A stretch of 64,000 bases of DNA from Elusimicrobiota bacterium (GTDB taxonomy: Bacteria > Elusimicrobiota > Elusimicrobia > UBA1565 > UBA9628): the NCBI GenBank assembly GCA_016191335.1, contig JACPOW010000001.1:1035-65034 (forward strand). The letters are read 5' to 3'. The notes under the pieces were generated by a model. It was not told the DNA's origin, searched no databases, and saw nothing but the letters and a program-made list of their open reading frames with translations. The first letter of the stretch is position 1. Each line of letters begins with the position of its first letter. The translations under genes were made by a program, and so were the position numbers. This document shows, piece by piece, positions 3,926-40,608 of this stretch.

Positions 3926-4564
3926 CTACTCGTCGTCGCCCAGGAGGCGGACGTTGGCCTTCCAGTAGCGGGGCTCGATCTCGATGCCCCCGACCGGCCG
4001 GAGCGGGCCCCAGTCCTCGTACAGGTAGACCATCTTGTCCGGGGCGGACTTCTGCTTGAGCCAGCCGTCGAAGACGACGCCCGTGTACTTCCAGTCCGTG
4101 CCCGCGGGGAACACGATCACCGCGTTGTGCTGCGTCGGCGGCAGGCCGTAGCGGATCTTCTTGACGACGAGGCTCTTCTTGACCAGCAGCGGCTGCAGGG
4201 CGGAGAAGGTCTCGCTCTGGTGCGAGATGCAGCCGCGCTCGAGGTTGCCGCCGTTGAAGAGCTTGAAGGTGTCCTCGATGTTGGTCATCGTGCCGTTGCC
4301 GTAGGCGTCGGCGGTCGCGCTCGGGTAGCGGGCGTGGAGGCGGGCGACGGCGTCGCTGGCGGCCTGCACCAGGGGCCCGAAGTCGGCCATGTTCTGCACC
4401 GACCAGTTCATCCCCTTCTCGGAGGCGTCGATGACCTTATAGACCGGTATGCGCGCGCGCGTGAAGGCGTCGTGCCCGGCGCGGACCTTCGCGGAGTCGA
4501 CCGCGGCCACCTGGGCCAAGGCGGGCATCGCGGCGGCGAGCAGGACCGTGAAAAGAGGGGCCAT
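3926..4564 (-). CDS. secreted hypothetical protein
   Basis: 212-aa ORF with a signal-peptide-like N-terminus (MAPLFTVLLAAAMPALAQV) and high GC3. No family recognised. Confidence 0.6.
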   Translation of the reverse strand: MAPLFTVLLAAAMPALAQVAAVDSAKVRAGHDAFTRARIPVYKVIDASEKGMNWSVQNMADFGPLVQAASDAVARLHARYPSATADAYGNGTMTNIEDTFKLFNGGNLERGCISHQSETFSALQPLLVKKSLVVKKIRYGLPPTQHNAVIVFPAGTDWKYTGVVFDGWLKQKSAPDKMVYLYEDWGPLRPVGGIEIEPRYWKANVRLLGDDE

Positions 4565-19468: not shown

Positions 19469-20370
19469 AGCCGCGCGAGCAAAGAGAATACGAAGGAGTC
19501 GCCGAGCATCCCGCCCGGCCTCCAGGCGAAGGAGGCGTCGACCGCCCTCCAGCTCAGGCCGGCGCCGAGGCTGAGGACCGCGAGGGCGCCGAGGTCCCGG
19601 CGCGAGAGGTCCGCGCCGCCGCGCAGCGAGCCCGCGAGGTCCTTGGAAACGCCGTGCGTCCACTCCGCGCCCAGGCCCGCGTCGGAGGACGCGCCGTGGG
19701 GCCGGTAACGGTAATCCAAAGCCAAAGTCAATCCCTCGGGCAGACGATAGCTCGCGCCGGCCGCCGCGACGATGGGCAGTGGCGAGCGCTCGTCCGCGAA
19801 CCTCATCCGCGACCCGACGTTGCGCACCGCCAGGCCGACCTGCGCCACGCCGGGCCCCAGGCGCCCCGGCCGGTAAAGGCCGCCCAGGTCGAGCGCCGCG
19901 CTCCGCGCCTCGGCCTCGGCGATCGAGCTCGTGATGTATTTGACGCCGGCGCCCAGCCGCAGGCCCGACGAGACGCTCACGCCGTAGGCGAGGTCCGCGG
20001 CGGTGTCGGACGCGGAGAACCCGCCCGTGGGCTTGCCCGCGGCGTCCCGGCCGTCGAGCCGTCCCTGGCCCAGGTGCCGGACGGCCGCGCCGAAGGTCCC
20101 GGCCCGGGTCGGCTGGGCGAAGCCGATGAAGTCGAAGCGGGTGTCCTCGCCCATCGCGACGCGCGTGAAGCCGACCTGGCGGGAGGGAAGGTCCGCGAGG
20201 CCGGACGGATTCCAGGCGACGGCGTCGACGCCGTCGGCCACCGCGGTGTAGGCGCCCCCCATGGCCGCGGCGCGCGCGCCGACGCCGATCTTCAGGAAGG
20301 GCGCGCCTTCCTGCGCCGAGGCGACCGACGGGAGGAGCGCGGCGAGGAGCGCGAGAGCCGTTATCCTCAT
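19465..20370 (-). CDS. PorV/PorQ-family-like outer-membrane beta-barrel
   Basis: 301 aa from ATG 20370 (ATGA overlap with the cargo stop). Signal peptide, then FLKIGVGARAAAMGGAYTAVADGVDAVAWNPSGLA, matching the PorV-family N-terminal signature. Alternating beta-strand pattern to the C-terminus. Confidence 0.7.
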   Translation of the reverse strand: MRITALALLAALLPSVASAQEGAPFLKIGVGARAAAMGGAYTAVADGVDAVAWNPSGLADLPSRQVGFTRVAMGEDTRFDFIGFAQPTRAGTFGAAVRHLGQGRLDGRDAAGKPTGGFSASDTAADLAYGVSVSSGLRLGAGVKYITSSIAEAEARSAALDLGGLYRPGRLGPGVAQVGLAVRNVGSRMRFADERSPLPIVAAAGASYRLPEGLTLALDYRYRPHGASSDAGLGAEWTHGVSKDLAGSLRGGADLSRRDLGALAVLSLGAGLSWRAVDASFAWRPGGMLGDSFVFSLLARL

Positions 20371-23300: not shown

Positions 23301-24923
23301 GGCGTCGGCGGATCCGACGCGGTAGTGGTAGAGGGTCCCGGTGGAGAGCCCGCTCAGGAACGCGTCGTGGACGGCGACGGTGGACGGGTCGGGCGCCGTG
23401 AGACCGCCGTAGGCCGTGCTCGTGCCGTACTCGACCCGGGAGGTCGCGGGCTCGCCGGTGACCCAGGCGATGGCCGCGTAGTCGATGCCCACGGCCGTGA
23501 CGGCCGCCGAACCGATGAGCGGCGGCGTGTTGTCCACCGTGACGGAAACGGCCGCGGCGGTCGAGGCGTTGCCCGCCGTGTCCCACGCCACCGCGCCCAG
23601 GCTGTGGAGCCCGTCGCTCGACAGCGCGGTGTTCCAGTCGAGCCCGTAGGGCGCGACGGCGTCGGGGGGCCCCAGGTCCTCGCCGTCGAGCCGGAACTGA
23701 ACCGTCGCCACGGCGACGCCGTCGAACGCCGCCGCGGCCACCGCGACGGATCCCGCGATCGTCGCCCCTCCGGCGGGCGATGAGATCGCCACCGTCGGCG
23801 GCGTGAGGTCAGGAGCGACGAGGGTCGAGAAGGAGGAGTCGCCCGAGACGGCGAGGTTTCCCGCGGCGTCGGCCGAGCGGACCCGGTAATGATACGGCGT
23901 CCCGGCGGCGAGCCCGGTCAAGAGCCGGACGTGGCTGGTGACGGTCGACGCGTCGAGCGCCGTGAGGCTCCCGTAGGCGGTGCTCGTGCCGTACTCGACC
24001 TGAGAGCTCGAGGGCTCGTTCGTGAACCACGACACCGCGGCCGAGCTCGAGCCTATGCCCCCGACGGCGGCCGAGCTGATGACGGGTGAAGTGTTGTCCA
24101 CCGTGACGGAGACGGCCGCGGAGGTCGAGGCGTTGCCCGCCGCGTCCCACGCCACGGCGCTCAGGCTGTGCGCGCCGTCGCTCGACAGGACGGTGTTCCA
24201 GCTCGCCGCGTAGGGCGCCAGGAGGTCCGGCGGGCCGAGGGCGGCGCCGTCGAGCTTGAACTGGACCGTCGTCACGGCCACGTTGTCCGAGGCCGCCGCC
24301 TGGACCGTGCGCAGGCCCCGCACCACCGCGCCGCCCGTGGGGGACGAGATGGTCACCGTGGGCGGAACGCCATCGGGGCCGGACGCCGTGAATACGACGT
24401 CGACCCAGTAGTTGCTGGACCGCGTGCCGCGGTTCGGGAAGGCCGCGGCGCTCGAGTAGACGTATAAGCCGTTGACCCCGTCGAGCCCGTCCCGCAGGGC
24501 GTGCAGCGGCGGATTGTCGATCCCCGCGGCGGAGAAGGTGAGCCGAGTGACCGCGTAGACCGCCGCGGTATGATAGGAAGCGACGTAGGTCGTCCCGGCC
24601 TGGATCGCGATGGGAGACGCGAAGCTCGCCGACTGCCAGCCCGTCGCGGTCTCCCCCGTGAAGGTCACGGAGCCGAGGAGAGCGCCCGTGTTCGTCCAGA
24701 GATGACCCGTGTGCGCGCCGGTGTTCCCCGCGGTCTTATAGAAGCGCAGGCCCGTGATCTGGCCCGCCGAGTCCGCGCGGAAGCGCACGCCGAGCTCGAC
24801 GGAACGGGAGTTGGGGCTGGAATCGCCCGCGGCGGGCAGCTGGGTCGTGAAAATGGACGCCGCGCGAGCCGTACCGGTCAGGAACAGCGCGGACAGAAGG
24901 AGCGGCAGGAAACGGATGGACAC
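20367..24923 (-). CDS. 1518-aa secreted multidomain protein: DUF4082-like, three Ig-like/FN3-like modules, ConA/LamG-like domains, T9SS-type C-terminal sorting domain
   Basis: GTG start and signal peptide MSIRFLPLLLSALFLTGTARA. The C-terminal ~95 aa (YAFPNPSRRGERVTIRL...VDVDIFDLSGRRV...HWDVRG...AVYLYSVNA...GKVALIK) fit the T9SS type-A/FlgD-Ig-like CTD pattern. Confidence 0.85.
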   Translation of the reverse strand: MSIRFLPLLLSALFLTGTARAASIFTTQLPAAGDSSPNSRSVELGVRFRADSAGQITGLRFYKTAGNTGAHTGHLWTNTGALLGSVTFTGETATGWQSASFASPIAIQAGTTYVASYHTAAVYAVTRLTFSAAGIDNPPLHALRDGLDGVNGLYVYSSAAAFPNRGTRSSNYWVDVVFTASGPDGVPPTVTISSPTGGAVVRGLRTVQAAASDNVAVTTVQFKLDGAALGPPDLLAPYAASWNTVLSSDGAHSLSAVAWDAAGNASTSAAVSVTVDNTSPVISSAAVGGIGSSSAAVSWFTNEPSSSQVEYGTSTAYGSLTALDASTVTSHVRLLTGLAAGTPYHYRVRSADAAGNLAVSGDSSFSTLVAPDLTPPTVAISSPAGGATIAGSVAVAAAAFDGVAVATVQFRLDGEDLGPPDAVAPYGLDWNTALSSDGLHSLGAVAWDTAGNASTAAAVSVTVDNTPPLIGSAAVTAVGIDYAAIAWVTGEPATSRVEYGTSTAYGGLTAPDPSTVAVHDAFLSGLSTGTLYHYRVGSADALGNLAVSADATFTTAPSSPAVSFFDDFSSYTPDVCLVDGAVFGPWTSVFNGYGCTSVRTDGGRSWLEESPFASASSSETHAALVSGLSFASPMTLSADLRTTAQLRTGSPPNPWEAAWVVWDYADNAHFYYFIPKPDGWELGKADPAYPGGQRFLTTGSSPVFPIGGAYHVKIAQRQNVLSAFVDGVLITTFTDAQRPYTSGRISLYTEDASARFTNVAVNVATPTVSVLSPQDGAVLAGTVAVTAAAFDDVAVATVQFRLDGANLGPPDAAAPYAAVWDTAVSSEGGHSLTALAWDADGNASTSAAVAVTVDHTAPVISSVVVADLGISSAALAWVTDEPSTSRVDYGTSAAYGSSTAPDASTSTVHTRSVGGLSAGTLYHYRVGSADAAGNLAFSGDGTFTTSPSGAGCLTSAGAWRNEAIPPQVSSFTVSFDVTPSSAGMESSVGLSGGAAGSLSALAAGVRFNSQGFIDVRYSTAYARMSTVAYSTGTSYRFDLRVNASAHIFDVYVTSPGAPRVLLARNYTFRSNHSTATVLDNLGFLASPGAATMCNLTVAASTVPWWDGIRELYATAGGSKTWYSSWDNGINRSFGFARDPIDPWFDAAHGTANYLIDAASGVFKISGSAPRMYIHHPEFVKGSSSMTVANSHAKQWHDVEMTVYAMRVADSNVAYAGIDGAARTNHGTTGSETAQLCDTRGVGARIRYDGHVDFYKETRHPTSYAVNNTTTTFWPVSASMPFNVWIGHKYVVYDLPDGNVMVEHYMDMTDGAGGGSWFLVNRFEDNGSAWGDGTPCAAGVNPQERLTNGSGRPGSESGLPNATVYFRSDGVGTNGLLYKKMSVREIVAPAGGAGPLAAVGAGTGSGAAPAAAEEAFLFRDLYAFPNPSRRGERVTIRLQAGVADEVDVDIFDLSGRRVNGGSLAGPVLLDDGNGKGAQYTYDYHWDVRGAASAVYLYSVNARKQGRPAIGRTGKVALIK
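22068..24377 (-). repeat. three ~190-codon paralogous coding modules inside the cargo gene
   Basis: Copies at about 23814-24377, 23244-23813 and 22068-22628. Each encodes ...SSP.GGA...VQF.LDG..LGPPD..APY...W.T..SS.G.HSL.A.AWD..GNAST.AAV.VTVD.T.P, then ...V.YGTS.AYG..TA.D.ST...H......GL..GT.YHYRV.SADA.GNLA.S.D..F.T. Confidence 0.8.
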
Positions 24924-28745: not shown

Positions 28746-28949
28746 TTGAGCCTCCTGCGGCCACTGCTGTTTCGATAACGGGATTATGCGCCAATAGCGC
28801 TTTCAAGGGGTGAGCAAGAGGGCCAATAGACCCACGGCAATGGGCCCACGCGAGTTTGGGCCCTCTGGTCTTACAAAAGCACCTATCGGCCCCCCGTCGG
28901 CGGACGGGAAAACCCTTTGGCTCCTCTGTTGCATGGATATGTAGGCGTT

Positions 28950-29522
28950 ATGTTAGAGATACGCTTTCACGGCCGCGGCGGCCAAGGGACGGTCCTCGCC
29001 GCCAAGATCATCGCCGACGCGGTCCTGCGCCAGGGCGAGAAGCAGTGCCTGGCGATCCCGGAGTTCGGCGTCGAGCGCCGCGGCGCGCCGGTCATGGCCT
29101 ACGCCCGCGTCAGCGACCAGCCCATCCTCGCGCGCACCAAGATCTACGCGCCGGACGCCCTGGTCGTCCTCGACCCCACCCTATATACGTCCGACATCCT
29201 GAAAGGGATCAAGCCCGGCGGCACGGTCCTGACCAACAGCGACCCCGCCGACATCCCGAAGCTCTCCGCCCGCGCGCCGGGCCTCAAGTTCATCGCCGTC
29301 CCCGCGCACAATATCGCGCTCGAGCTCAAGCTCGGCTCCGCCTCGAGCCCGATCGTCAACACCGCGATGTGCGGCGCCGCCTGCGCCGTGTTCGGCCTGT
29401 GCGGCCTCGACGCGCTGCTCGAGTGCGTCCGCGAGGCCGTGCCGGTCAAGGCCGACGCCAACGTCGAGGCCGCGCGCCGCGCCTTCGAAGCCGCCCGGGA
29501 GGTCCTGCATGCCTCTGCTTGA
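28950..29522 (+). CDS. 2-oxoacid:ferredoxin oxidoreductase, gamma subunit
   Basis: 190 aa from ATG 28950. MLEIRFHGRGGQGTVLAAKII is the typical gamma-subunit N-terminus. Confidence 0.85.
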   Translation: MLEIRFHGRGGQGTVLAAKIIADAVLRQGEKQCLAIPEFGVERRGAPVMAYARVSDQPILARTKIYAPDALVVLDPTLYTSDILKGIKPGGTVLTNSDPADIPKLSARAPGLKFIAVPAHNIALELKLGSASSPIVNTAMCGAACAVFGLCGLDALLECVREAVPVKADANVEAARRAFEAAREVLHASA

Positions 29523-29790
29523 CGAAGACCCCAGAGCCTACCCGCGCGTGATGATCGCGTCGCGCTCGATGGACGAGAACCACACGGGCAACTGGCGCAC
29601 CTTGCGCCCCGTCATCGACGCGAAGGCCTGCACCGGCTGCAACATCTGCTGGAAGCAGTGCCCCGAGGCCTGCGTGGACCTGACCGACAAGGTCCCGAGC
29701 ATCGACATGGATTACTGCAAGGGCTGCGGCATCTGCGTGGCCGAGTGCCCGGCCCACTGCGTGCATTTCGTCCCCGAGAGCGCGTCATGA
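29509..29790 (+). CDS. 2-oxoacid:ferredoxin oxidoreductase, delta subunit (2x[4Fe-4S] ferredoxin)
   Basis: 93 aa with CTGCNICWKQCP and CKGCGICVAECP cluster motifs. Confidence 0.85.
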   Translation: MPLLDEDPRAYPRVMIASRSMDENHTGNWRTLRPVIDAKACTGCNICWKQCPEACVDLTDKVPSIDMDYCKGCGICVAECPAHCVHFVPESAS

Positions 29791-30941
29791 AGAAAGTCCT
29801 CAGCGGAAACCACGCCGCGGCGCTGGCCGCGCAGCTCGCCCGGACCCAGGTCTCCGTCGGCTATCCGATCACGCCGGCCACCCAGGTCTTCGAGGCTCTA
29901 GCGGAAATGAAGTCCAAAGGTGAATTCCCCGGGGAGTTCATCGCCGCGGAGTCCGAGCACTCGGTCATGGCCGCGCTGCTCGGCGCCTCCACCGCCGGGG
30001 CGCGCACCTTCACCGCGACCTCCTCGCACGGCCTGGCCTACATGCACGAGGTCCTGCACTGGGTCGCCGGAGCGCGCCTGCCCATCGTGATGATCGACGT
30101 CAACCGGGCCCTCGCCGCGCCGTGGAACCTGTGGACCGACCAGACCGACTCCCTCTCCCAGCGCGACACCGGCTGGATGCAGACCTACTGCTCGACCAAC
30201 CAGGAAGTCCTCGACACAGTGCTGATGTCGTTCAAGATCGCCGAGCGCGTGATGCTGCCCTCGATGGTGGTGCTCGACGGCTTCACTTTGTCTCACAGCT
30301 ACGAGCCGGTCGACGTCCCGGCCCAGGCGGACGTCGACGCGTTCCTGCCCCCCTTCCGCCCGGAGCTGAAGCTCGACTGCGACCAGCCGATCACCTTCGG
30401 CTCGCTCACCCAGCCCAAGGACTACCTGCGCCTGCGCCGCCGCATGGCCGCGGACATGGCCGAGGCCGAGGACGCCATCGAGGAGGTCGGGCGCGAGTTC
30501 GGCGAGATGTTCGGCCGCTCCTACGGCCAGCTCGACCCCTATCTCTGCGAGGACGCCGAGACCATCCTCGTGACGAGCGGGGCCGTCGGCTCCACCGCGC
30601 GCGCCGCCGTCGACGCGCTGCGCGCCAAGGGCCTCAAGGCCGGCAACCTGCGCCTGCGCGCCTTCCGGCCGTTCCCGGCCAAGGCCCTGCGCGCCTTCGT
30701 GCGTCCGGGCATGAAGCTCGCGGTCGTCGACCGCAACTACTCCCCCGGCATGGGCGGCATCTTCGCCCAGGAGATCAAGGCCGCGCTGTACCCGCGCCCC
30801 GGCGTCTCCGTGCACGGCTACGTGACCGGCCTCGGAGGCGGCGACATCACCGTCGAGCTGCTCCAGGAGGTCTGGGAGCGGGTCGACGAGTCTCCCGTGG
30901 CCGAGGTCCCCGCCGCGACCTGGGTGGAGGACGCCCGATGA
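29787..30941 (+). CDS. 2-oxoacid:ferredoxin oxidoreductase, alpha subunit
   Basis: 384 aa from ATG 29787 (ATGA overlap). N-terminus MKKVLSGNHAAALAAQLARTQVSVGYPITPAT. Confidence 0.85.
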   Translation: MKKVLSGNHAAALAAQLARTQVSVGYPITPATQVFEALAEMKSKGEFPGEFIAAESEHSVMAALLGASTAGARTFTATSSHGLAYMHEVLHWVAGARLPIVMIDVNRALAAPWNLWTDQTDSLSQRDTGWMQTYCSTNQEVLDTVLMSFKIAERVMLPSMVVLDGFTLSHSYEPVDVPAQADVDAFLPPFRPELKLDCDQPITFGSLTQPKDYLRLRRRMAADMAEAEDAIEEVGREFGEMFGRSYGQLDPYLCEDAETILVTSGAVGSTARAAVDALRAKGLKAGNLRLRAFRPFPAKALRAFVRPGMKLAVVDRNYSPGMGGIFAQEIKAALYPRPGVSVHGYVTGLGGGDITVELLQEVWERVDESPVAEVPAATWVEDAR

Positions 30942-31822
30942 CCACGCTCAAGAAGACGAAGACCTCGATCCCCCAGACCGAGCTGATGAGCTCGGGCCAC
31001 CTGGCCTGCCAGGGCTGCGGCGCGACGATGGCGATGCGCTACGCGCTCAAGGGCCTGGGCGACCGGACCGTCATGGTCGTCCCCGCCTGCTGCTGGACCG
31101 TGATCTCCGGGGCCAATCCGCGCAGCTCGATCAACCTGCCGCTGCTGCACAGCCCCTTCGCCGCGGCCGCGGCCACGGCGACCGGCGTCAAGGCCGGCCT
31201 CGTCTCCCGCGGCGACAAGGAGACGACCGTCGTGGCCTGGGCCGGCGACGGCGGCACCTTCGACATCGGCATCCAGGCGCTGTCCGGCGCCGCCGACCGC
31301 AACGAGGACATCCTCTACGTCTGCTACGACAACGAGGCCTACATGAACACCGGGGTGCAGCGCAGCGGCGGCACGCCCTCCGGCGCGTGGACGATGTCCA
31401 CCCCCGGCGGGAGCTCGCGCCCGAAGAAGGACCTCGACGCGATCATGCTCGCCCACCACATCCCCTATTTCGCCACCGCCACGCCGGCCTACGCCGAGGA
31501 CATGGTGCGCAAGTTCGCCAAGGCGCGGACGGTCAAGGGCTTCCGCTTCATCCACATCCTCTCCCCGTGCCCCCCCGGCTGGAAGACCGACCCGATGGAC
31601 AGCACCAAGCTCTCCCGCCTGGCCGTGCAGACCGGCCTGTTCCGCCTCTACGAGGTGGAGGAGGGCGTGATGAAGCTCAACATGAACGTGGCCAACCGCA
31701 AGCCCGTCGCGGAATACCTGAAGGCGCAGGGCCGCTTCAAGAACATGCCCCCGGATGAGATGTCCGCGATCCAGGCCCGCGTCGACGCGTTCTGGGAGAG
31801 CGAGAAGGGGCGGCCGTCATGA
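30938..31822 (+). CDS. 2-oxoacid:ferredoxin oxidoreductase, beta subunit (ThDP-binding)
   Basis: 294 aa from ATG 30938 (ATGA overlap). Contains GHLACQGCG, AWAGDGGTFDIG and YDNEAYMNTG. Confidence 0.85.
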   Translation: MTTLKKTKTSIPQTELMSSGHLACQGCGATMAMRYALKGLGDRTVMVVPACCWTVISGANPRSSINLPLLHSPFAAAAATATGVKAGLVSRGDKETTVVAWAGDGGTFDIGIQALSGAADRNEDILYVCYDNEAYMNTGVQRSGGTPSGAWTMSTPGGSSRPKKDLDAIMLAHHIPYFATATPAYAEDMVRKFAKARTVKGFRFIHILSPCPPGWKTDPMDSTKLSRLAVQTGLFRLYEVEEGVMKLNMNVANRKPVAEYLKAQGRFKNMPPDEMSAIQARVDAFWESEKGRPS

Positions 31823-31998
31823 CGCCGCGCAAGAGCAAGTGCGTCGAGTGCCGCCACTGCGACATGCAGCTCGACCCCAAGAAGGGCTCGCGCCATCACT
31901 GCGCGCGCAAGAAGCGCGTCCTCCCCGCCAACGTGACCTCGCGCCCGGCGTGCGACCGCTTCGAGGCGCCCAAGCCGTCCGGCCACTGGGGACCCTAG
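31819..31998 (+). CDS. 59-aa 4-Cys miniprotein (C-x2-C-x16-C-x16-C), translationally coupled to the beta subunit
   Basis: Below the ORF-track cutoff. ATGA overlap with the beta stop. Product MTPRKSKCVECRHCDMQLDPKKGSRHHCARKKRVLPANVTSRPACDRFEAPKPSGHWGP. Almost every codon ends in G/C, as in real genes here. A paralogous module sits at 37204-37356. Confidence 0.6.
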   Translation: MTPRKSKCVECRHCDMQLDPKKGSRHHCARKKRVLPANVTSRPACDRFEAPKPSGHWGP

Positions 31999-32047: not shown

Positions 32048-34378
32048 ATGCCCACCGTCACCGCCGCCGAACAATTCACGCTGAGGCCCCGCCGCGCCGT
32101 CTACCTGAAGCCCGAGCCCGCCGCCTTCGAGGGCGTCGAGACGCTCGAGGCGATGGACGCCGCCTACCGCGCCCTGTGCGCGATCCTCTTCAACTTCGTG
32201 CCGAACTCCGGCCATCCGGGAGGCAGCATCTCCTCGGGGCGCATCGTCTCCTCCCTCCTCTACAAGAACCTGCGCTACGACTTCTCCCGCCCCGACACGA
32301 TCGACAACGACGTCCTCGTCTACGCCGCCGGCCACAAGGCGATGGGCCTGTACGGGATGTACGCCCTGCGCGACGAGTGGGTCCGCATCGCGCGCCCCGA
32401 CCTCCTGCCCTCCGAGCGCCGCCGCCTGCGCCTCGAGGACCTGCTCGGCTTCCGCCGCAACCCGACGCAGTCGACGCCCCTCTTCCGCCAGTTCAAGTGC
32501 ATGGCCCTCGACGGCCATCCGACCCCGATGACGCCCTTCGTGCCCGTCGCCACGGGCGCCTCCGGCGTCGGCGACTGCACCGGCGTCGGCCTGGCGCTCG
32601 CCGCGATGGACGCCTTCGGGCCCAAGGGCCCCCGCGTCCACCTCCTCGAGGGCGAAGGCGGCATGACCGCCGGGCGCGTGCACGAGGCGCTGGCCACCGC
32701 GGCCACCGCGGGCCTGTCGAACGCCATCATGCACCTGGACTGGAACCAGGCCTCGATCGACTCCGACCGCGTCACCGCCGAGGGCGACAAGCCCGGCGAC
32801 TACGTGCAGTGGGACCCGCGCGAGCTGCTGTACATGAACGACTGGAACCTCGTCGAGGCCGGCGACGGCAGCGACTTCCGCCGCGTGCTGGCCGCCCAGC
32901 AGGCCGCGCTCTCCCTCGACAACGGCCAGCCCACCGCGATCGTGTACCGCACGACCAAGGGCTGGAAGTACGGCATCGAGGGCAAGGGCTCCCACGGCGC
33001 GGGCCACGCTTTCTGCTCCGACGCCTTCTACAAGGCCGTCGAGCCTTTCGAGACCGCGTTCGGCGTGAAGCTCCCCCGCTTCGAAGGGGAGAAGACCCCG
33101 GACCGCGTCGAGGCGGCGTACTGGGAGACCTTGCTCACCATGCGCAAGGCGTTCGAGACGAAGCGCCCCGACGTGGCGCGCTTCGCGGCCGGGCGCGTGG
33201 CCGAAGCGGGCGCGGCGACCCCGAAGGGGCGCGCCGTCCGCGCCGGCGGGCCCGACCTGGCGGCGCTGTACGCCTCCGACCTCAAGGCCGAGGTCACGCC
33301 CGAGCCCCTCAAGCTCGAGACCGGCAAGGCCGCCACCATCCGAGGCGCCTTGGGCGACGCTTTGGGCTACCTCAACACCGTCACCAAGGGCGCCATCATC
33401 GCGTGCGCGGCCGACCTGGCCGAGTCCACGAGCGTCTCCCCGATCAACAAGGCCTTCGCCAAGGGCTGGTTCCACGCCAAGAACAACCCCGTCTCGCGCC
33501 TGATCTCCGTCGGCGGCATCTGCGAGGACGCGATGGGCGGCGTGATGGCCGGGGCCTCGAGCCTGGGCCTGCACATCGGCGTGTCGAGCTCCTACTCCGC
33601 CTTCATCGCCGCGCTCGAGCACGTCCCCGCGCGCCTGCACTCCATCGGCCAGCAGATGCGCCACGAGGCGACGGGCGAGCCCAACCGCGTCTGGATCATG
33701 GTCAACGCCCACGCCGGCCCGCTCACCGGCGAGGACGGCCCGACCCACGCCTGTCCTCAGGCCCTGCAGCTGCTGCAGGACAACTTCCCGAAGGGCTCGC
33801 TGATCACGCTCACGCCCTGGGACCCGTCGGAGGTCTGGCCGCTCGTGATGGAATCCCTGCGCGCCCGCCCCGCCGTGCTGGCCCCGTTCGTCACGCGCCC
33901 GGCCTGCCCGGTGCCGGACCGCGCGAAGATGGGATTGCCGCCCGCGTCCGCGGCGGCCAAGGGCATCTACGCGGTGCGCCGCGGCGGCAAGAAGACCGTC
34001 GTCCTGCAGGGCCACGGCGTGGCGCATCACTTCATGCGCGACGTCCTGCCCAAGCTCGACGCCGCGGGCGTCAAGCTCAACGTCTTCTACGTGGCCAGCG
34101 CCGAGCTCTACGACCGCCTCAGCCCCGCCGAAAAGGAGGAAGTCTTCCCGCCCGAGCTGGCCTTCAACTCCATGGGCATCACGGACTTCACCTTGGCCAC
34201 GATGTGGCGCTGGGTGCGCTCCGACGCGGGGCTGGCGGCGACGCTGTATCCGGCGAAGACCTTGGGCTACCTGGGCAGCGGCTCGGGCGACAAGGTCCTC
34301 GAGCAGGCGGGCCTGACCGGCCCCGGACAGCTGGCGGCGATCACGGCCTGGGTCGCCGGCGGCGATTCGAGAGACTGA
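32048..34378 (+). CDS. long transketolase-family ThDP enzyme (776 aa), atypical
   Basis: Contains HPGGSISSG, LLEGEGGMTAG...LDWNQASID and TGEDGPTH. GGAGAAAACC Shine-Dalgarno upstream. An extra segment of roughly 100 aa lies between the PP and Pyr domains. Confidence 0.75.
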   Translation: MPTVTAAEQFTLRPRRAVYLKPEPAAFEGVETLEAMDAAYRALCAILFNFVPNSGHPGGSISSGRIVSSLLYKNLRYDFSRPDTIDNDVLVYAAGHKAMGLYGMYALRDEWVRIARPDLLPSERRRLRLEDLLGFRRNPTQSTPLFRQFKCMALDGHPTPMTPFVPVATGASGVGDCTGVGLALAAMDAFGPKGPRVHLLEGEGGMTAGRVHEALATAATAGLSNAIMHLDWNQASIDSDRVTAEGDKPGDYVQWDPRELLYMNDWNLVEAGDGSDFRRVLAAQQAALSLDNGQPTAIVYRTTKGWKYGIEGKGSHGAGHAFCSDAFYKAVEPFETAFGVKLPRFEGEKTPDRVEAAYWETLLTMRKAFETKRPDVARFAAGRVAEAGAATPKGRAVRAGGPDLAALYASDLKAEVTPEPLKLETGKAATIRGALGDALGYLNTVTKGAIIACAADLAESTSVSPINKAFAKGWFHAKNNPVSRLISVGGICEDAMGGVMAGASSLGLHIGVSSSYSAFIAALEHVPARLHSIGQQMRHEATGEPNRVWIMVNAHAGPLTGEDGPTHACPQALQLLQDNFPKGSLITLTPWDPSEVWPLVMESLRARPAVLAPFVTRPACPVPDRAKMGLPPASAAAKGIYAVRRGGKKTVVLQGHGVAHHFMRDVLPKLDAAGVKLNVFYVASAELYDRLSPAEKEEVFPPELAFNSMGITDFTLATMWRWVRSDAGLAATLYPAKTLGYLGSGSGDKVLEQAGLTGPGQLAAITAWVAGGDSRD

Positions 34379-34384
34379 GCCCGG

Positions 34385-36964
34385 TCACCTCGCGCGCAGC
34401 AGGACGTCTTCAGGTCCCGACAGGGACGGCGTCTGGTCGCGGTTCTGGCGGCGCGCCTCGTCCTGGACCTTGGGCTTGAGGTAGGAGTGCAGGGAGGCCG
34501 TCGTGACCGGCCCGCCCGCCGACAGCCCCTTGAGCAGGTGGTAGGTGAACAGGCCGTGGCCCTGCTCCTTGAGCACGCTCGTGATCTGGTCGGGCTGGGT
34601 CGCCGCGAGCACCGAGAGGCGGCCCGTCGCGGGCTTCTGCAGCCTCGACACGAGCGGCCGCGCGCCCTCGGAGAGCACGGAGCGCCCTCCCGCTCCCGAG
34701 AAGCAGGCGTCGAGCAGGACGACGACCTGCTTCGCCTTGAGGCCGTCGAGCGTCTTATAGAGCCGGTCCACGGGATACGCCGTGTCCGCGAGGAACGAGG
34801 CGTCGCCGTCCCACGGCATCAGGAACGCCCGGCCCGTCGACGGGTCGGGCGCGCCGTGCCCCGAGAAATAGAAGAAGACCCGGCTGCGCTCGTTCGCGTT
34901 CTTGGGCAGCCAGCTCTCGAGGTACTTGGCGAGCGCGGAGCGCCCGGCCTTGGCGCCCGAGAGCAGGATGAGGTTGCGCTCGGGCACGCCGAGAGCCTTG
35001 AGGTGACGGCGCACCGCGGCCGCGTCGCGTTCGGCGAAGAGCGCCTTCGGAAGCTCGGAGTACTCCTCGACGCCGACGACGATCGCGAAGGCGTCGGGAT
35101 CCTCGGGCAAGGCGTAGCCGGGCTTGTCCGCGTCGGAGACGAGCGCCGGCGCCGCGGCCGGCGGCGCGACGGCGACGGCGGCCTTCTTCTCGCGCGCGGC
35201 GGCCGCCGCCACGGCCTGATCGACGAGGCGATGCACGTCGGGCGTTGGAGCGGCGGGCTTGCCGCGCGCGGACGCGGAGCGCAGGATGTTCAATGTCTCG
35301 GCGCCCTTCGCGTGGTCGTAGGGCGTCTTCTGGCTGTTGTCCTGCCACAAGGGATCGGCGCCCTTGGCGAGCAGCCAGCTCACCATCTTCGCGTTCCCCT
35401 GCTCGGCGGCGCGCGTCAGCGCGGTGAACCCGATCTGGTCGGGCCGGTCGATTCTGGCGCCTCCCGCCAGCAGCGCCTGCGCGGACTCGAGGGAGCAGTC
35501 GGGCCGCACGGCGCAGCCCGCGAGCGGCGCCTCATCGCGCGCGCCGTCTCCCTGGTTCGGGTCGGCCCCCGCGGCGAGCAGCCGCTTGACGACGTCCGGC
35601 CACTCGAGCGCCATCGTGAGCGGAGGCTCCTTGCGTCCGGAGCGCAAGGACAGGTCCGGCTTGTGCTTGAGCAGAGCGGCGAGCAGCGGCTCCGAAGGCT
35701 TCGGGCGCGGCCACGGCGGGCCCTCGAGCAGGCGCGTGAGCGCCGTGTAGCCTTTCGCGTCGGGGGCGTCGAGCTTCGCGCCGGCGGCGAGCAGCGCCTC
35801 GAGGGACTCGGGGCCGCAGTCCTTCTCCCCCTCGGAATGCCGGCTCGTCAGATAGGTGAGCGGAGTCAGCCCGCGCTCGGCGTCCGCCTGCTCGGGATCG
35901 GCGCCGTGCTTGAGGGCCCAGTCCAACAGTTCGGGGTCGCACGCGACGCGGTGAAGCGGGGGACGTCCCCCGGACATCAGGCCGCGATGCCCCGGATGCG
36001 ACAGGAGCAGCTTGACAGCCTCGCGATTGCCCGCGGCCAGGGCGGTCTCAAGAGGCACCTCCCCTTCCCTGACGCAGGAAACAGGGTCCCCGCCAGGGTA
36101 GGCCAGCAGCCAGCGCAGCGCGGGCGTCAGCGCCGGCGAAGCGGCGGCGCGAGCCAGCGAGACTCTGCGCAGGCACCATGGGGATTCGAAGGCGACGCCG
36201 CGCGACACGATCAGGTCGGCGAGAGCCGGATCGGGCCGCTCGACCTCGAACAGCGCGCGATCAACCGCACCGTCTACAATGTAATCAGGCCCGATCTTCA
36301 GAGTGGGGCTCGACTCGAGGACCAAGCGCAGAGTCTGAGTGTCGCCACGGACGCCCGCCCGCGGCCAATCCGAATCGAACGGATAACCGGAGGCGAGCAG
36401 GCCCCGCGCCGCCTCGGGGCAGACACTCGAGGGGGCCGGTTGAAGCTTGGCGCCGCGCTTGATGAGCAGCTCGAAATGCTTCATGCAGCATTCGCCGGCG
36501 GCACGGTATAGCGGACCGTCGTAGACGTCTTTCGGGTGGGCGTTGGGCGAAGCACCTCCGTCGAGCAGGACCTCGAGCAAAGCGGGGTTCTCGCGGCCTT
36601 GAGGGCAGCCGCTGTGATAGGTCAACTGGGAGGTCATGTTCCCCTTGTTGCTCACGTCGGCGCGAACGCCGGCCGCGAGAAGCCGTTTGACGGTCTCGGT
36701 GCCGCGCTGCATGGCGAACTTGAGCAGGGACAGCTGATCCTCGTCGGCGGAAGGGACCTTCACGCCGGCGGCGAGCAGCAGATGGACGGACCCGGTCGAC
36801 CCGGATCTCAACGCCTCCTGAAGATGCGCGGTCTTGGGCTTGCGCTCCTTGAGAAGCTCGGCGACCTTCGCCGGGTCTCCCAGCGCGTCCATGAGGGGGT
36901 CTTTCGCGGCGGCGATCGAAGGCAGGACGGCGGCGAGCAGCAGGGCGGGGAGCAAAGTCCTCAT
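34385..36964 (-). CDS. secreted ankyrin-repeat protein with a C-terminal caspase-family (C14) domain
   Basis: 859 aa from ATG 36964 (signal MRTLLPALLLAAVLPSIAAA). At least 8 ankyrin-like repeats (G[AG][AD][PL][ND] turns, e.g. LLAAGADPNQGD, LAKGADPLWQD). The C-terminus has the His-Cys dyad context FFYFSGHGAP and VVLLDACFSGAGG. Confidence 0.8.
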   Translation of the reverse strand: MRTLLPALLLAAVLPSIAAAKDPLMDALGDPAKVAELLKERKPKTAHLQEALRSGSTGSVHLLLAAGVKVPSADEDQLSLLKFAMQRGTETVKRLLAAGVRADVSNKGNMTSQLTYHSGCPQGRENPALLEVLLDGGASPNAHPKDVYDGPLYRAAGECCMKHFELLIKRGAKLQPAPSSVCPEAARGLLASGYPFDSDWPRAGVRGDTQTLRLVLESSPTLKIGPDYIVDGAVDRALFEVERPDPALADLIVSRGVAFESPWCLRRVSLARAAASPALTPALRWLLAYPGGDPVSCVREGEVPLETALAAGNREAVKLLLSHPGHRGLMSGGRPPLHRVACDPELLDWALKHGADPEQADAERGLTPLTYLTSRHSEGEKDCGPESLEALLAAGAKLDAPDAKGYTALTRLLEGPPWPRPKPSEPLLAALLKHKPDLSLRSGRKEPPLTMALEWPDVVKRLLAAGADPNQGDGARDEAPLAGCAVRPDCSLESAQALLAGGARIDRPDQIGFTALTRAAEQGNAKMVSWLLAKGADPLWQDNSQKTPYDHAKGAETLNILRSASARGKPAAPTPDVHRLVDQAVAAAAAREKKAAVAVAPPAAAPALVSDADKPGYALPEDPDAFAIVVGVEEYSELPKALFAERDAAAVRRHLKALGVPERNLILLSGAKAGRSALAKYLESWLPKNANERSRVFFYFSGHGAPDPSTGRAFLMPWDGDASFLADTAYPVDRLYKTLDGLKAKQVVVLLDACFSGAGGRSVLSEGARPLVSRLQKPATGRLSVLAATQPDQITSVLKEQGHGLFTYHLLKGLSAGGPVTTASLHSYLKPKVQDEARRQNRDQTPSLSGPEDVLLRAR

Positions 36965-37034
36965 CCGGCCGATTGTACCCGTTCGACGGATTTTGGACAA
37001 GCCCGGCTGGCAGGTTTGTTGCATTTCAGACGAC

Positions 37035-37187
37035 ATGAAAAAGTGCCCTGATTGTCGCAATCCCGTCACTTCGCTGATGTTCCTCGACGGCAAGCTCGTC
37101 CCCGAGCACTACTGCGAGCGCTGCTGTAAGAGCGTCGCCCCCGTGGTGAAGCCCGTCGCGGCGCCCCGGGAAGCGGTCCCCGCCTAA
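37035..37187 (+). CDS. 50-aa zinc-ribbon-like protein (CxxC-x19-CxxC)
   Basis: Product MKKCPDCRNPVTSLMFLDGKLVPEHYCERCCKSVAPVVKPVAAPREAVPA. It ends 16 nt before the CoA-transferase A gene. No clear Shine-Dalgarno. Confidence 0.45.
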   Translation: MKKCPDCRNPVTSLMFLDGKLVPEHYCERCCKSVAPVVKPVAAPREAVPA

Positions 37188-37203: not shown

Positions 37204-38370
37204 ATGCCGAAGACCGGCGCCCCCGTCTGCTCGGACTGCGGCTGGCTGGAGACGCGGACCAGCGCCGACGGCCGCTCGTTGCGCTTCTGCGTCAAGCACG
37301 GCATGCCGCGCTCCGCGGTCGACCTCCTCTCCGCGCCCTGCAGCGACTTCAAGCCCCTGGAGACGACGGGAGTCCTCCCCGCCCAGCCCCCGCTCCCCCC
37401 GCCGGTCCGGCCGCTGCCGGAACCGCCGCTGTTCCAGCCGCCGGACCCCGACGGCTTCCGCCGCTTCCTGCGCGACGACAAGGATTTTTCGCTCCGCTCG
37501 AAACTGATGGACGAGCGCCAGGCGGTCAAGCGCTTCATCCGCACCGGCGACTACATCGGCTTCGAGCTGTACGGCACGGTCCGCTGCCCGATGTCGGTGG
37601 TGCGCGAGATCGCGCGCCGGAAGATCGGCGGCCTGCGCCTGATGGGCCAGGGCCTGATGGACGCCGACTTCCTGATCGCCTCCGGCCTCGTCGACGAGAT
37701 GGACATCACCTACGTGGGCTACGAGGCCTACGGCCTCTCCCCCATCCTGCGCCGCGCCGTCGAGGGCGGCGCGCTCAAGCTCGCGGAATGGTCCAACGCC
37801 GCCATCACCTGGCGCATGAAGGCGGCGGCGATGGGCCTGCCGTTCCTGCCCGCGCGGACCATGCTCGGCACCGACACGCTCGCCCGCAGCCCGGCCAAGA
37901 CGATGAAGGACCCCTTCACCGGCATGGACCTGACCTTGCTGCCGGCGCTCGTCCTCGACACGGCGGTCATCCACGTCCACCGCGCCGACAAGTTCGGCAA
38001 CTGCCAGATCGACGGCATCTCCGGCTTCGCCGTCGAGATGTCCCGGGCCTGCAAGCGCCTCATCGTCAGCGCCGAGGAGATCGTCGACACCGAGGTGTTC
38101 CGCAGGACGCCCGAGCGCACCGTCATCCCCTATTTCCTCGTCGACGCCGTCGTCCCCGCGCCCTTCGGCGCGCACCCCGGCGAGACCTGCGGCGTCTACC
38201 GCCGCGACGAGCCGCACATCAAGGCCTACCTCGAGGCGACGCGGTCCGAGGAAGCGACCAAGGAATATCTCGACGAGTTCATCCACGGCGTGAAGGACCA
38301 CGCCGCCTATCTCAAGCGCGTCGGCGCCGCCCGCCTGGGCAAGCTGAAGGTGAGGAAGAATGAGCGCTGA
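37204..38370 (+). CDS. family-I CoA-transferase subunit A (glutaconate-CoA-transferase-like) with a ~100-aa N-terminal 4-Cys + Pro-rich extension
   Basis: 388 aa. The canonical domain begins near KLMDERQAVKRFIRTGDYIGFE. The extension MPKTGAPVCSDCGWLETRTSADGRSLRFCVKHGMPRSAVDLLSAPCSDFKP has high GC3 and the same Cys spacing as ORF 31819-31998. Confidence 0.8.
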   Translation: MPKTGAPVCSDCGWLETRTSADGRSLRFCVKHGMPRSAVDLLSAPCSDFKPLETTGVLPAQPPLPPPVRPLPEPPLFQPPDPDGFRRFLRDDKDFSLRSKLMDERQAVKRFIRTGDYIGFELYGTVRCPMSVVREIARRKIGGLRLMGQGLMDADFLIASGLVDEMDITYVGYEAYGLSPILRRAVEGGALKLAEWSNAAITWRMKAAAMGLPFLPARTMLGTDTLARSPAKTMKDPFTGMDLTLLPALVLDTAVIHVHRADKFGNCQIDGISGFAVEMSRACKRLIVSAEEIVDTEVFRRTPERTVIPYFLVDAVVPAPFGAHPGETCGVYRRDEPHIKAYLEATRSEEATKEYLDEFIHGVKDHAAYLKRVGAARLGKLKVRKNER

Positions 38371-39127
38371 GAAGGCCAACGCCACCGAGCGCCTCGCCTG
38401 CACCGCGGCCCGCCTGATGAAGGGCCGCACGACCGTCTTCATCGGCACCGGCGTGCCGATGCTGGCCGCGTCGCTCGCCCGCGCCCTGTACGCGCCCTCG
38501 CTCATCCCCGTCTTCGAGTTCGGCGGCGTCGGCTCGACCCTCGAGAAGCTGCCGCTCGCCGTCGGCGAGCACAACTCCTTCCGCCGCGGCGTCGCGGCGA
38601 TGGGCATCTGCGACGTGATGGAGGCCGCGCAGCGCGGCGTGGTGCGAGACGGCTTCCTCGGCGGCGCGCAGATCGACCCGTACGGCAACCTGAACACGAC
38701 CGTGATCGGCCCCTACGACGACCCCGCGGTGCGCCTGCCCGGCTCGGGCGGGGCCAACGACGTCGGCTCCCTGTGCTGGCGCACGATCATCATCATGAAG
38801 CACGAGCGCAAGCGCTTCGTGCCGAAGGTGGATTTCCTGACCACGCCGGGCTACCTCGACGGCCCCGGCGCCCGCGAGCGCGCGGGCCTGCCGCCGGAGA
38901 CGGGCCCCTACCGCGTCGTGACCGACCTCGCCGTCTTCGACTTCGACCCGGGCTCCAAGCGCATGCGCCTGATCGCGCTGAACCCCGGCGTGACCACGGA
39001 GCGCGTCGCCGCCGAGACCGGCTTCCCTTTCCCCATCGCCGACCGGGTCACGCTCAACGCCGACCCGACCCCGCTCGAGCTTCGGACTTTGCGCCGCAAG
39101 ATCGACCCCGACAAGGTCTTCCTCTGA
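38360..39127 (+). CDS. family-I CoA-transferase subunit B
   Basis: 255 aa. GGAQIDPYGNLNTTVIG...RLPGSGGANDV pattern. Overlaps subunit A by 11 nt. Confidence 0.8.
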   Translation: MSAEKANATERLACTAARLMKGRTTVFIGTGVPMLAASLARALYAPSLIPVFEFGGVGSTLEKLPLAVGEHNSFRRGVAAMGICDVMEAAQRGVVRDGFLGGAQIDPYGNLNTTVIGPYDDPAVRLPGSGGANDVGSLCWRTIIIMKHERKRFVPKVDFLTTPGYLDGPGARERAGLPPETGPYRVVTDLAVFDFDPGSKRMRLIALNPGVTTERVAAETGFPFPIADRVTLNADPTPLELRTLRRKIDPDKVFL

Positions 39128-39201
39128 CCCGACTGCTGCTCGTCGACCTGATCCCCGATACCGCGGTCCACCACCCGCGGACGATCACCTTTCCGTTCCT
39201 G

Positions 39202-40608
39202 ATGGGCCTGAGCCGGCTCCTCGGCTGGCGGGCCTGCTGGAGCGCGCTCGGCGTGCGCTACGCCCCCGACCTGCGCTACGTCCTGACGAAGGAGGACCTG
39301 GCGCTCCTGCTCGCCGAGACGAAGCGCCGCCGTCCCGAGATCGTGGTCATCAACCAGCGCCTGCCGAAGGGCCAGATGAACGCGATCGCCGCCGCGTCCG
39401 GCGCGCGCGTCGTGTATTGGAACATGACCGAGAACGTCCACGACCTCGCCGAACACGTCCGGCGCCGGATGCCGGAAGCCCGCGGCCCCGTCCTCGACGA
39501 CCCGGGGCTGCTCGACCGGATACGCCCGGACTACCGGTGCACGATCCTCAACAAGGCCCCCTGGGCCGCCAACCCGGTCGTCGAGGTGATCGGCGGCCAT
39601 CGCTGCTCCTACCACGCTCCCGTCGCCTCCAATCCGTTCTACCGCGGCCTCGGCCTGCCGTCGGCGAGCATGGGCTGCTCCTTCTGCCAGGTGCCCGACA
39701 TGAAGAGCTCCCGCTGGCGGGTCAAGGATGCGGCGGCCTTCACCGTGAGGCAGATCGCGGCGCTCAGCCGCCAGCGGCCCGCGAAAGGCGGCGAGACGCG
39801 CCTCAACCTGTGCGGCTACGAGCTGTGGCGGCGCCTCGAGGAGCTCGCCCGCGCCTTGGTCCGCGAGGGCGTGCGCGGCGTCGAGCTCGATTTCATGCCC
39901 CGGCTCGACGAGGTGCTCGCCGCGCGGGTCGCCATCGAGCGCGTCCTGCCGCTGCTGGCGGGCAACGGGATCTCCCTGCGCATCAACGGCCTGGGTGTCG
40001 AGAACTTCTCGCCGGACGAGAACGCGCGCCTGCACAAGGGCATCACGGCCGAGCAGGTCCATGAGGCGTCCGCCTTCCTGACCGCCTGCTCCGAGCGCTG
40101 GCCCGGGACCTTCCGGCTGCCGTTCGGTGGGCTGGGCATGATCCTGTTCACGCCCTGGACGACGCTGAAGGACCTGCGCGTCAACCTCGACAACATCGAG
40201 CGCTGCCCTTTGATCGACCGCCCGTTCGCGCTCAGCCGGCGGCTGATGCTGTTCCCGGGCGCGCCGGTCACCTTGCTCGCCGAGCGGGACGGCCTTCTCG
40301 CGAAGACGCACGACGGCCTCTTCTACAACGCCGGCTGCAAGATCGACGCCGACAAGAACGACCTCCCCTGGCGCTTCGCCCGGCCGGAGGTCGCGGTGCT
40401 GTGGAGCCTCGCCCGCCGGATCTCGTCGGACCGCTACAACATCCCCGACGACGACCCCGTCAAGCGCGCCGCCGCGCCCTTCGTCGACCGGCCCGGGAGG
40501 GCGCCGTTCGACCCCCTCCCGCTGTTCCGGGAGGCCGTCGACGCCATCGAGCGCCGCCCGAAGACCGCCTCGCCGCTCGAGCTGCTCGCGCTCCTGCGCG
40601 CGCCCTAG
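39202..40608 (+). CDS. radical-SAM-like TIM-barrel protein with a non-canonical Cys motif (start uncertain; frame open from 39124)
   Basis: The frame is open from the codon overlapping the subunit B stop. The first ATG is at 39202, with only CTG codons before it. Motif HRCSYH-x..-GCSFC (C-x23-C-x2-C). Later blocks (GLGVENFS, GMILFTPWTTLKDL) resemble radical-SAM barrels. Confidence 0.5.
   Translation: MGLSRLLGWRACWSALGVRYAPDLRYVLTKEDLALLLAETKRRRPEIVVINQRLPKGQMNAIAAASGARVVYWNMTENVHDLAEHVRRRMPEARGPVLDDPGLLDRIRPDYRCTILNKAPWAANPVVEVIGGHRCSYHAPVASNPFYRGLGLPSASMGCSFCQVPDMKSSRWRVKDAAAFTVRQIAALSRQRPAKGGETRLNLCGYELWRRLEELARALVREGVRGVELDFMPRLDEVLAARVAIERVLPLLAGNGISLRINGLGVENFSPDENARLHKGITAEQVHEASAFLTACSERWPGTFRLPFGGLGMILFTPWTTLKDLRVNLDNIERCPLIDRPFALSRRLMLFPGAPVTLLAERDGLLAKTHDGLFYNAGCKIDADKNDLPWRFARPEVAVLWSLARRISSDRYNIPDDDPVKRAAAPFVDRPGRAPFDPLPLFREAVDAIERRPKTASPLELLALLRAP

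Follow-up and report, generated by a model that had tools for sequence, protein, structure and literature searches.

We report a family of small, cysteine-rich proteins whose members occur both as free-standing miniproteins and, fused to an enzyme, as the N-terminal module of a CoA-transferase. Both forms are found in a 64,000 nucleotide stretch of DNA from an Elusimicrobiota bacterium (contig JACPOW010000001.1 of assembly GCA_016191335.1, positions 1,035 to 65,034 of the forward strand), to which we refer as the window. The free form is encoded at 31819..31998 (+ strand), behind the genes of a four-subunit 2-oxoacid:ferredoxin oxidoreductase (OFOR); the fused form is the N-terminal extension of a CoA-transferase subunit A (whole gene 37204..38370, + strand). 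The open reading frame (ORF) at 31819..31998 is a genuine protein-coding gene, conserved and under selection. Profile comparisons identify its product and residues 1-55 of CoA-transferase A as paralogs in one family, in which the extension is divergent; by the same comparisons the two are not recent duplicates of each other. The family is previously undescribed and lineage-specific; small cysteine-ligated accessory modules as such are a familiar kind of protein.

The product of the ORF, MTPRKSKCVECRHCDMQLDPKKGSRHHCARKKRVLPANVTSRPACDRFEAPKPSGHWGP, has 59 amino acids, contains the peptide VLPANVTSRPACDR and ends in HWGP. A preliminary description of this DNA, made from the letters alone, had proposed the gene and rightly placed cysteines at residues 8, 11, 28 and 45, with F48 and P51 behind them. 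It called the product a four-cysteine protein, thereby overlooking a fifth cysteine, C14, which extends the first pair to C-x2-C-x2-C and is invariant among the close orthologs. Its claims that the ATG overlaps the TGA stop codon of the OFOR beta gene as ATGA, and that third codon positions are almost uniformly G or C, are both borne out. The beta gene ends at 31822, within the overlap, and the G+C fractions at the first, second and third codon positions of the ORF are 0.59, 0.54 and 0.97, in a window with a G+C content of about 70%.

Conservation of the ORF in related genomes, which the same description had named as a check, is readily seen. A word-index protein search with the miniprotein returned six relatives of 58 amino acids with 71-89% identity, and a genome scan returned eight loci, each in an Elusimicrobiota metagenome-assembled genome. 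Public relatives are annotated as 'hypothetical protein' only. The ORF lies directly 3' of the OFOR beta gene, with its ATG conserved, in all ten of the orthologous loci that were fetched (66-96% amino acid identity), and three distant lineages besides these also have a miniprotein gene after OFOR beta. The ratio of non-synonymous to synonymous substitution rates (dN/dS, or omega, by the Nei-Gojobori method) ranges from 0.04 to 0.29 in comparisons with the window; its median over 54 pairs is 0.14, and dS is as high as 1.8. Variable columns in the alignment of 58 codons number 29, 20 and 46 at codon positions 1, 2 and 3, respectively. We take the ORF to be real because of its omega, its synteny, its conserved start codon and its third-position composition, as a spurious ORF in GC-rich DNA would behave otherwise.

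The extent of the family was explored with an exhaustive HMMER search, in which a profile of six close-ortholog sequences was compared with 1.84 billion representative sequences (E<=1e-3). This gave 34 proteins, all but two of them free-standing and 48-64 amino acids long, and a further search enlarged the family to about 50 free-standing relatives of 48-76 amino acids. P0017 and P0039 were rejected as members; these are long repeat proteins in which the motif is an artefact, e.g. P0017 repeats the stretch ACDEFELP. The consensus of the wider family reads CVECRWCxL...GSxYxCxKTGxxLPxxVxxRPACxDFxP...HWGP, and its core is C-x2-C-[RG]-[WHYF]-[C/F/L]...[YF]-x-C-x-K-T-G...R-P-A-C-x-x-[FY]. Four cysteine columns are invariant, with the spacing C-x2-C-x16(17)-C-x16-C-x2-[FY] that is found in the window miniprotein and in the extension.

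The remaining features of the family are more variable. Of 37 free members, 30 have C14, and the other seven have F, L or W instead, like all of the fused modules. Such replacements suggest a buried site rather than a fifth ligand. Some members carry six or seven cysteines, and one subfamily has seven. A C-terminal [HY]WG[PA] motif, HWGP in the window miniprotein, is shared by 44 of the 50 free members; all 10 fused modules lack it. Charge is not conserved: the isoelectric point (pI) ranges from 4.6 to 10.6 across the family, the subfamily of the window is very basic (pI about 10, net charge +9) and the fused modules are near neutral. All 11 of the 11 taxon-labelled members are from the Elusimicrobiota, a restriction that rests on the labelled records. 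A further sequence, P0055 (94 amino acids, from an 885-nucleotide ENA contig), consists of an HU-type DNA-binding protein (PF00216) followed by the C-terminal half of a seven-cysteine miniprotein (…GEVIHRCACKKFKPQSAAPHWGP). The junction is a shared KTGEKLK stretch, and this is either a chimeric assembly or a recombination at microhomology.

The preliminary description did not recognise the module as a named family, and our searches agree. Pfam returned nothing above noise for the miniprotein, the extension or the 37 members (the best zinc-finger matches, in one or two of the 37, had E-values of 0.05-0.5), no NCBIfam model rose above noise for the window miniprotein, and profile searches of the PDB with the close-ortholog, extension and wider-family alignments gave chance matches only. 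In the literature we found no relevant description of a small cysteine-rich, OFOR-linked protein in Elusimicrobia. AlphaFold2 (AF2) gave an unusable model from six sequences (predicted local distance difference test, pLDDT, 60.7) and a better one from 30 (pLDDT 75.8, predicted TM-score 0.49). The latter has a CxxC turn at residues 8-11, a hairpin (14-19 / 23-28) that ends at C28, a short strand with a helix, and C45 in a loop; overall it is a small sheet of three strands. A Foldseek search with this model matched no solved fold in the PDB; the best matches, at E 0.56, were WW domains, which is a trivial three-strand similarity.

The fused module forms residues 1-55 of CoA-transferase A (37204..37368, + strand). 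Its cysteines at 9, 12, 29 and 46, together with F49 and P51, are where they had been described. The module is followed by a proline-rich and poorly conserved linker of residues 56-75 (37369..37428, + strand) and then by a conserved LFQPPDPDGF segment, which is counted with the extension. The body of the enzyme is assigned to 37429..38370 (+ strand; Pfam CoA_trans). The protein belongs to the glutaconate CoA-transferase family, subunit A: residues 106-318 match PF01144 (E 7e-27), and residues 1-304 of GctA (1POI_A) align to residues 99-383 (E 2.8e-39). As the GctA alignment starts at residue 99, some 98 residues of CoA-transferase A are extra. The extension was found again in 10 orthologs, and omega is 0.32 in its module and 0.50 in its linker. 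When the extension was the query, a word-index search gave only two relatives; a metagenome scan gave five more, all on the same CoA-transferase, and in these searches there was no other fusion partner. The most divergent ortholog of the enzyme, in locus L010 (68% identity), starts with MLLQPPDPEG at the equivalent of residue 75 or so and has neither module nor linker, which indicates that the module is a separable addition. At another locus, L012, the first 16 module codons survive as a relic (MAKTQPPQCSDCGWLE; 3967-4017, + strand) that runs into unrelated sequence. It lies about 2 kb upstream of the intact CoA-transferase A gene at 5977, with a 496-amino-acid ORF between, and points to an insertion by which the 5' end of this gene was duplicated.

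Are the free and fused modules homologous, or do they share only a spacing? In the window pair the spacing C-x2-C-x16-C-x16-C-x2-F is identical, as the preliminary description had stated; across the fused form it is not fixed, since the ortholog P0007 has C-x2-C-x17-C-x16-C, with 17 rather than 16 residues between the second and third cysteines. A Gly-(Ser/Arg) turn that the two were said to share before the third cysteine is one residue out of register once the cysteines are aligned. BLASTP found no alignment between the two segments. When their non-cysteine columns were permuted, the similarity was marginal (z = 2.4, P = 0.013) and came mostly from F48/F49. A shallow hhalign comparison, of six against three sequences, gave a probability of 5.3%, a value that by itself would have led us to dismiss homology wrongly; the deeper family that HMMER recovered overturned it.

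The deep comparison set an alignment of 37 free members (A4) against one of 10 extensions (A5), and here hhalign gives a probability of 96.9% (E 1.5e-10, score 48.9). Shuffling the columns of the extension 150 times with the four cysteine columns fixed gave scores of 11.0±3.0 with a maximum of 26.5, and full shuffles gave 9.7±2.3. The cysteine-fixed scores lie far under the observed 48.9, hence the signal between free and fused modules is more than cysteine spacing. A hidden Markov model (HMM) built from free members only, run over 5759 six-frame ORFs, recovered nine of nine fused modules with E-values between 3e-8 and 3e-4, and its next match was at E 0.67. It scored the window miniprotein at 100.6 bits (E 1.4e-29) and the window extension at 25.4 bits (E 4e-6 over the same ORFs). 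The reciprocal HMM, built from the extensions, matched the free proteins P0040 and P0023 at E 3.5e-7 and did not reach the window miniprotein. P0040 is a free intermediate with a proline-rich tail where HWGP would be, and tblastn aligns the window extension to it with 34% identity over 68 amino acids (E 2e-6). The extension (CSDCGWLET...FCVKHGMPRSAVDLLSAPCSDFKP) is far more closely resembled by the wider-family consensus than by the miniprotein of the window, and the fused copy is nearest to a subfamily other than that of the OFOR-linked copy. The shuffles, the reciprocal HMMs and this intermediate uphold the earlier proposal that one module occurs once free and once fused, as paralogs.

We sampled about 13 distinct genomic contexts of the family. 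The gene upstream of the miniprotein is OFOR beta in the window and in L001-L010, L016, L017 and L027/28, where the identity of beta falls as low as 54%. In L024/25 and L026 it is a transketolase-like protein of 776-777 amino acids, 84-86% identical to one encoded in the window; in L029 and L030/31 a PAP2 gene in a cluster with FAA_hydrolase, HgmA_N and Flavin_Reduct; in L022/23 a PAS histidine kinase; and in L020 an unknown protein. The neighbour in L018/19 is a radical S-adenosylmethionine (SAM)/SPASM gene, divergently oriented and 17 nucleotides away, and some members are next to Crp, response-regulator or histidine-kinase genes. The miniprotein gene is almost always the last in a string of co-directional genes, often with a convergent gene next. 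Its distance from the upstream gene ranges from -4 to +49 nucleotides, and from -4 to +15 in the OFOR-linked loci, with ATGA overlaps with OFOR beta in the window and in L017 and with the transketolase-like gene in L026.

The 776-amino-acid transketolase-like gene is a conserved neighbour of the free and of the fused module. In three loci it is directly followed by a free miniprotein gene, and with the seven-cysteine miniprotein it makes up a conserved two-gene unit in some relatives (L024-L026). The fused module is always downstream of it, adjacent in L004 and L013 and with insertions between elsewhere. Three states are therefore seen 3' of the transketolase-like gene: a free miniprotein, a module fused to CoA-transferase A, and a CoA-transferase A without the module (L010). 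In this clade the neighbourhood of OFOR, miniprotein, transketolase-like gene and CoA-transferase A/B is conserved. The preliminary description had read the two copies in the window as a physical or functional link between the OFOR and the CoA-transferase. The data do not specifically support this, since the family is multi-copy with members behind unrelated genes, and the fused copy is from another subfamily and has the transketolase-like gene as its constant neighbour.

Some other gene arrangements around the miniproteins recur or differ in their details. The order FAA_hydrolase, HgmA_N (homogentisate-dioxygenase-like), Flavin_Reduct, unknown gene, PAP2, miniprotein is found at L029 911-5450 and at L030/L031 1-6168, and the same catabolic genes (FAA_hydrolase, HgmA_N, Flavin_Reduct) lie near the miniprotein at L022 1771-7171 on the other strand. 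In L002 (4094-6329) the miniprotein gene is followed not by the transketolase-like gene but by NfnAB/GltD-like genes (DHODB_Fe-S_bind; Pyr_redox_2/Fer4_20), which could possibly be a ferredoxin:NAD(P) link for the OFOR.

What might such a module do? Judging from the sequences, putative metal or Fe-S binding by the four invariant cysteines is plausible. We think there is about an even chance that the four form one fold-holding metal site and that the module is a clip-on accessory or docking part for the protein encoded upstream, with HWGP as its anchor and the proline-rich tether in its stead in the fusion. The four cysteines would make up a single tetrahedral site (Zn, or Fe/Fe-S) that holds together the knuckle, the beta-hairpin and the C-terminal loop. 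The resulting mini-domain would serve as an accessory subunit or docking module. Its partner may be the translationally coupled OFOR in the window and the transketolase-like enzyme, which would use thiamine diphosphate (ThDP), in other loci. The HWGP tail would anchor the free forms, and the covalent tether that takes its place may keep the CoA-transferase attached to the transketolase-like enzyme, which is encoded upstream of it in every case. A probable origin of the fusion is a free miniprotein gene that lay between the transketolase-like and CoA-transferase A genes and was captured by loss of its stop codon; the three observed states fit such a capture.

A docking role is suggested by the small gaps and ATGA overlaps, the recurrence after OFOR beta, the adjacency to the transketolase-like gene and the presence of HWGP only in free forms. 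As a candidate fifth OFOR subunit the miniprotein has a conserved operon position and translational coupling in the window and in the OFOR-linked loci given above (L001-L010, L016, L017, L027/28); its association with OFOR is not exclusive, since the family is also represented behind transketolase-like, PAP2 and histidine-kinase genes. Several observations weigh against the reading as a metal-holding docking module. The apparent partners are heterogeneous: besides OFOR and the transketolase-like protein they include a membrane phosphatase (PAP2), a PAS histidine kinase and a radical SAM gene that is divergently oriented, so that a partner-independent function fits as well as paralog-specific docking. 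An OFOR-linked lineage of 48 amino acids (L027/L028) has no HWGP tail, thus the tail is no obligatory anchor. The subfamilies with six or seven cysteines hint at more than a simple structural four-cysteine site, and the 13 or so contexts are a sample of the family.

Comparison with known systems helps to place this docking proposal. Zinc-ribbon and rubredoxin mini-domains also have four cysteines, a C-x2-C-G-[WY] knuckle (CSDCGW in the fused copy) and a beta-hairpin, and also exist both free and fused to metabolic enzymes, where they serve structural or docking purposes; the rubredoxin-like zinc ribbon at the N-terminus of DUF35 proteins, for example, partners with CoA-dependent thiolase-type enzymes. 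In the present family, unlike in zinc ribbons, the second ligand pair is two isolated cysteines 16 residues apart and there is no second CxxC knuckle. We rejected a rubredoxin or zinc-ribbon assignment: the invariant set has one CxxC knuckle, no Pfam model is above noise, hhalign gives about 1% probability and Foldseek gives no match.

The closest functional precedent, by analogy, is domain VII of the pyruvate:ferredoxin oxidoreductase (PFOR) of Desulfovibrio africanus, which spans residues 1171-1232, has a Cys1195-Cys1212 disulfide and comes directly after the ThDP-binding, beta-equivalent domain VI (PMC8945911). This is a cysteine-containing add-on of about 60 residues after beta, accessory and non-catalytic, and the miniprotein has 58-59 amino acids in the same position. 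Unlike the miniprotein, domain VII is a covalent part of a single-chain PFOR, its two cysteines form a disulfide and it has no four-cysteine site. It has no sequence similarity to the family (the PDB profile search returned no PFOR at E<=10), which also accompanies proteins other than OFOR. An extra polypeptide beyond alpha, beta, gamma and delta is likewise encoded in OFOR operons of Aquificae (Hydrogenobacter, Aquifex), whose enzymes have five subunits; there it has 21-27 kDa and resembles the epsilon subunit found in CO dehydrogenase/acetyl-CoA synthase (PMC10052474). We rejected it as the counterpart of the miniprotein, which is cysteine-rich and has 6.5 kDa.

A different proposal is that the miniprotein is itself redox-active, a minimal Fe-S or Fe(Cys)4 protein that exchanges electrons with the OFOR and possibly with the transketolase-like enzyme, and so extends the cluster chain of delta and beta. 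The cysteine pattern lends it some appeal. High-potential iron-sulfur proteins (HiPIPs) have ligands spaced C-x2-C-x16-C-x13-C. Their CxxC and two isolated cysteines, with aromatic residues after the second and fourth, resemble the C-x2-C-x16-C-x16-C of the family, in which an aromatic residue is near each of these elements. Most free members have C-x2-C-x2-C, some have six or seven cysteines, the commonest neighbour is an Fe-S/ThDP oxidoreductase and the NfnAB-like genes follow the miniprotein in L002. That said, the last spacing differs from that of HiPIPs, the family has no segment of 20-40 residues or so before the cysteines and a three-stranded sheet is predicted. The Pfam models for HiPIP (PF01355), rubredoxin and ferredoxin match none of the 37 members at E<=1, hhalign gives about 1% probability against HiPIP (1.3%) and rubredoxin with manually entered reference sequences, and there is no HiPIP or other Fe-S protein among the Foldseek matches in the PDB. 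We therefore discarded HiPIP as a candidate, and also a 2x[4Fe-4S] ferredoxin of the OFOR delta type, since C-x3-C-P and any Fer4 match are missing, although most free members do have C-x2-C-x2-C. It is difficult to see why an electron carrier should be fused to a CoA-transferase, a non-redox enzyme, or be encoded after PAP2 or a kinase gene. The loss of C14, which is F, L or W in the fused modules and in part of the free members, also speaks against a redox role. On balance we consider a redox role unlikely. A bolder form of it, in which the modules are a new class of Fe/Fe-S redox module of about 50 residues with HiPIP-like spacing, plugged into the OFOR and into a transketolase-like enzyme that would thereby be an oxidoreductase, with the fused form tethering the CoA-transferase into a metabolon from 2-oxoacid through acyl-CoA to acid, strikes us as quite improbable.

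Could the miniprotein instead be a small zinc-finger regulator that binds nucleic acids, e.g. an autoregulator of the operon that it terminates? The very basic window subfamily and the regulatory genes (Crp, response regulator, histidine kinase) beside some members would fit. Charge is not conserved across the family, though, and is near neutral in the fused modules, no Pfam DNA-binding model matches, and a regulator would not typically be joined to an enzyme by a flexible linker or be translationally coupled at the end of operons. We rate this idea as very doubtful. Less likely still is a cysteine-rich precursor of a ribosomally synthesised and post-translationally modified peptide, or a substrate of a radical SAM/SPASM maturase. 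The peptide is indeed small and cysteine-rich, and the member in L018/L019 is 17 nucleotides from such a gene. No maturase lies beside the other 12 or so contexts, conservation extends over the whole length with no split into leader and core, and the module also exists as the N-terminal domain of an enzyme. Finally, that the two window segments are unrelated and their spacing convergent or due to chance, or even that the ORF is non-coding, an artefact of a genome with 70% GC, draws on the missing BLASTP alignment, the shallow profile result, the altered spacing in P0007 and the many spurious long ORFs in the window, yet is contradicted by the deep profiles, the shuffle controls, the omega of 0.14, the synteny and the conserved start, and we give it almost no credence.

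The other genes around the miniprotein are as follows, on the + strand unless noted. The OFOR consists of a gamma subunit (28917..29522; Pfam POR), with an uncertain start codon (orthologs are called at 190 amino acids), a delta subunit of the 2x[4Fe-4S] ferredoxin-like type (29509..29790; Pfam Fer4 families), an alpha subunit (29787..30941; Pfam POR_N and PFOR_II, NCBIfam PorA/VorA-like) and a ThDP-binding beta subunit of the POR/VOR type (30938..31822; Pfam TPP_enzyme_C). The last scores 407.6 bits against the NCBIfam model PRK11864, which has a cutoff of 405. The transketolase-like ThDP protein (32048..34378, 776 amino acids) has the Pfam domains Transketolase_N and Transket_pyr. Its NCBIfam scores are far under the cutoffs and its best PDB matches are transketolases at E of about 1e-15; on these comparisons it is only distantly related to true, characterised transketolases. 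There is no terminator-like site between the OFOR, miniprotein and transketolase-like genes. A gene for ankyrin repeats and a caspase domain (Peptidase_C14; 34385..37093, - strand, 902 amino acids) sits between the transketolase-like and CoA-transferase A genes on the opposite strand. Since L004 and L013 have these two genes side by side, it appears to have been inserted into a conserved string of genes.

CoA-transferase B (38360..39127; Pfam CoA_trans) follows subunit A. After it comes an ORF of 469 amino acids (39199-40608) with no Pfam match at E<=1e-3; it has a CxxC-containing motif that is radical SAM-like only at first sight. Further upstream in the window a secreted-looking protein of 1518 amino acids (20367-24923, - strand) contains three near-identical repeats of about 200 amino acids (…VTVDNT[SAP]PVISS…GTxYHYRV…).

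In summary, an uncultivated phylum gains, in an operon of central metabolism, a real gene of a kind that gene callers easily miss, and a lineage-specific protein family absent from the domain databases has been defined. With free, fused and module-less states in related genomes, this is also a clean case of a miniprotein captured as an enzyme domain. Should the module be only a structural zinc clip, the gain in annotation would be modest. If it does dock onto ThDP enzymes or carry a metal cluster, it would be a very small metal-binding scaffold, and the reconstruction of the OFOR, transketolase-like and CoA-transferase cluster in the Elusimicrobiota would change.

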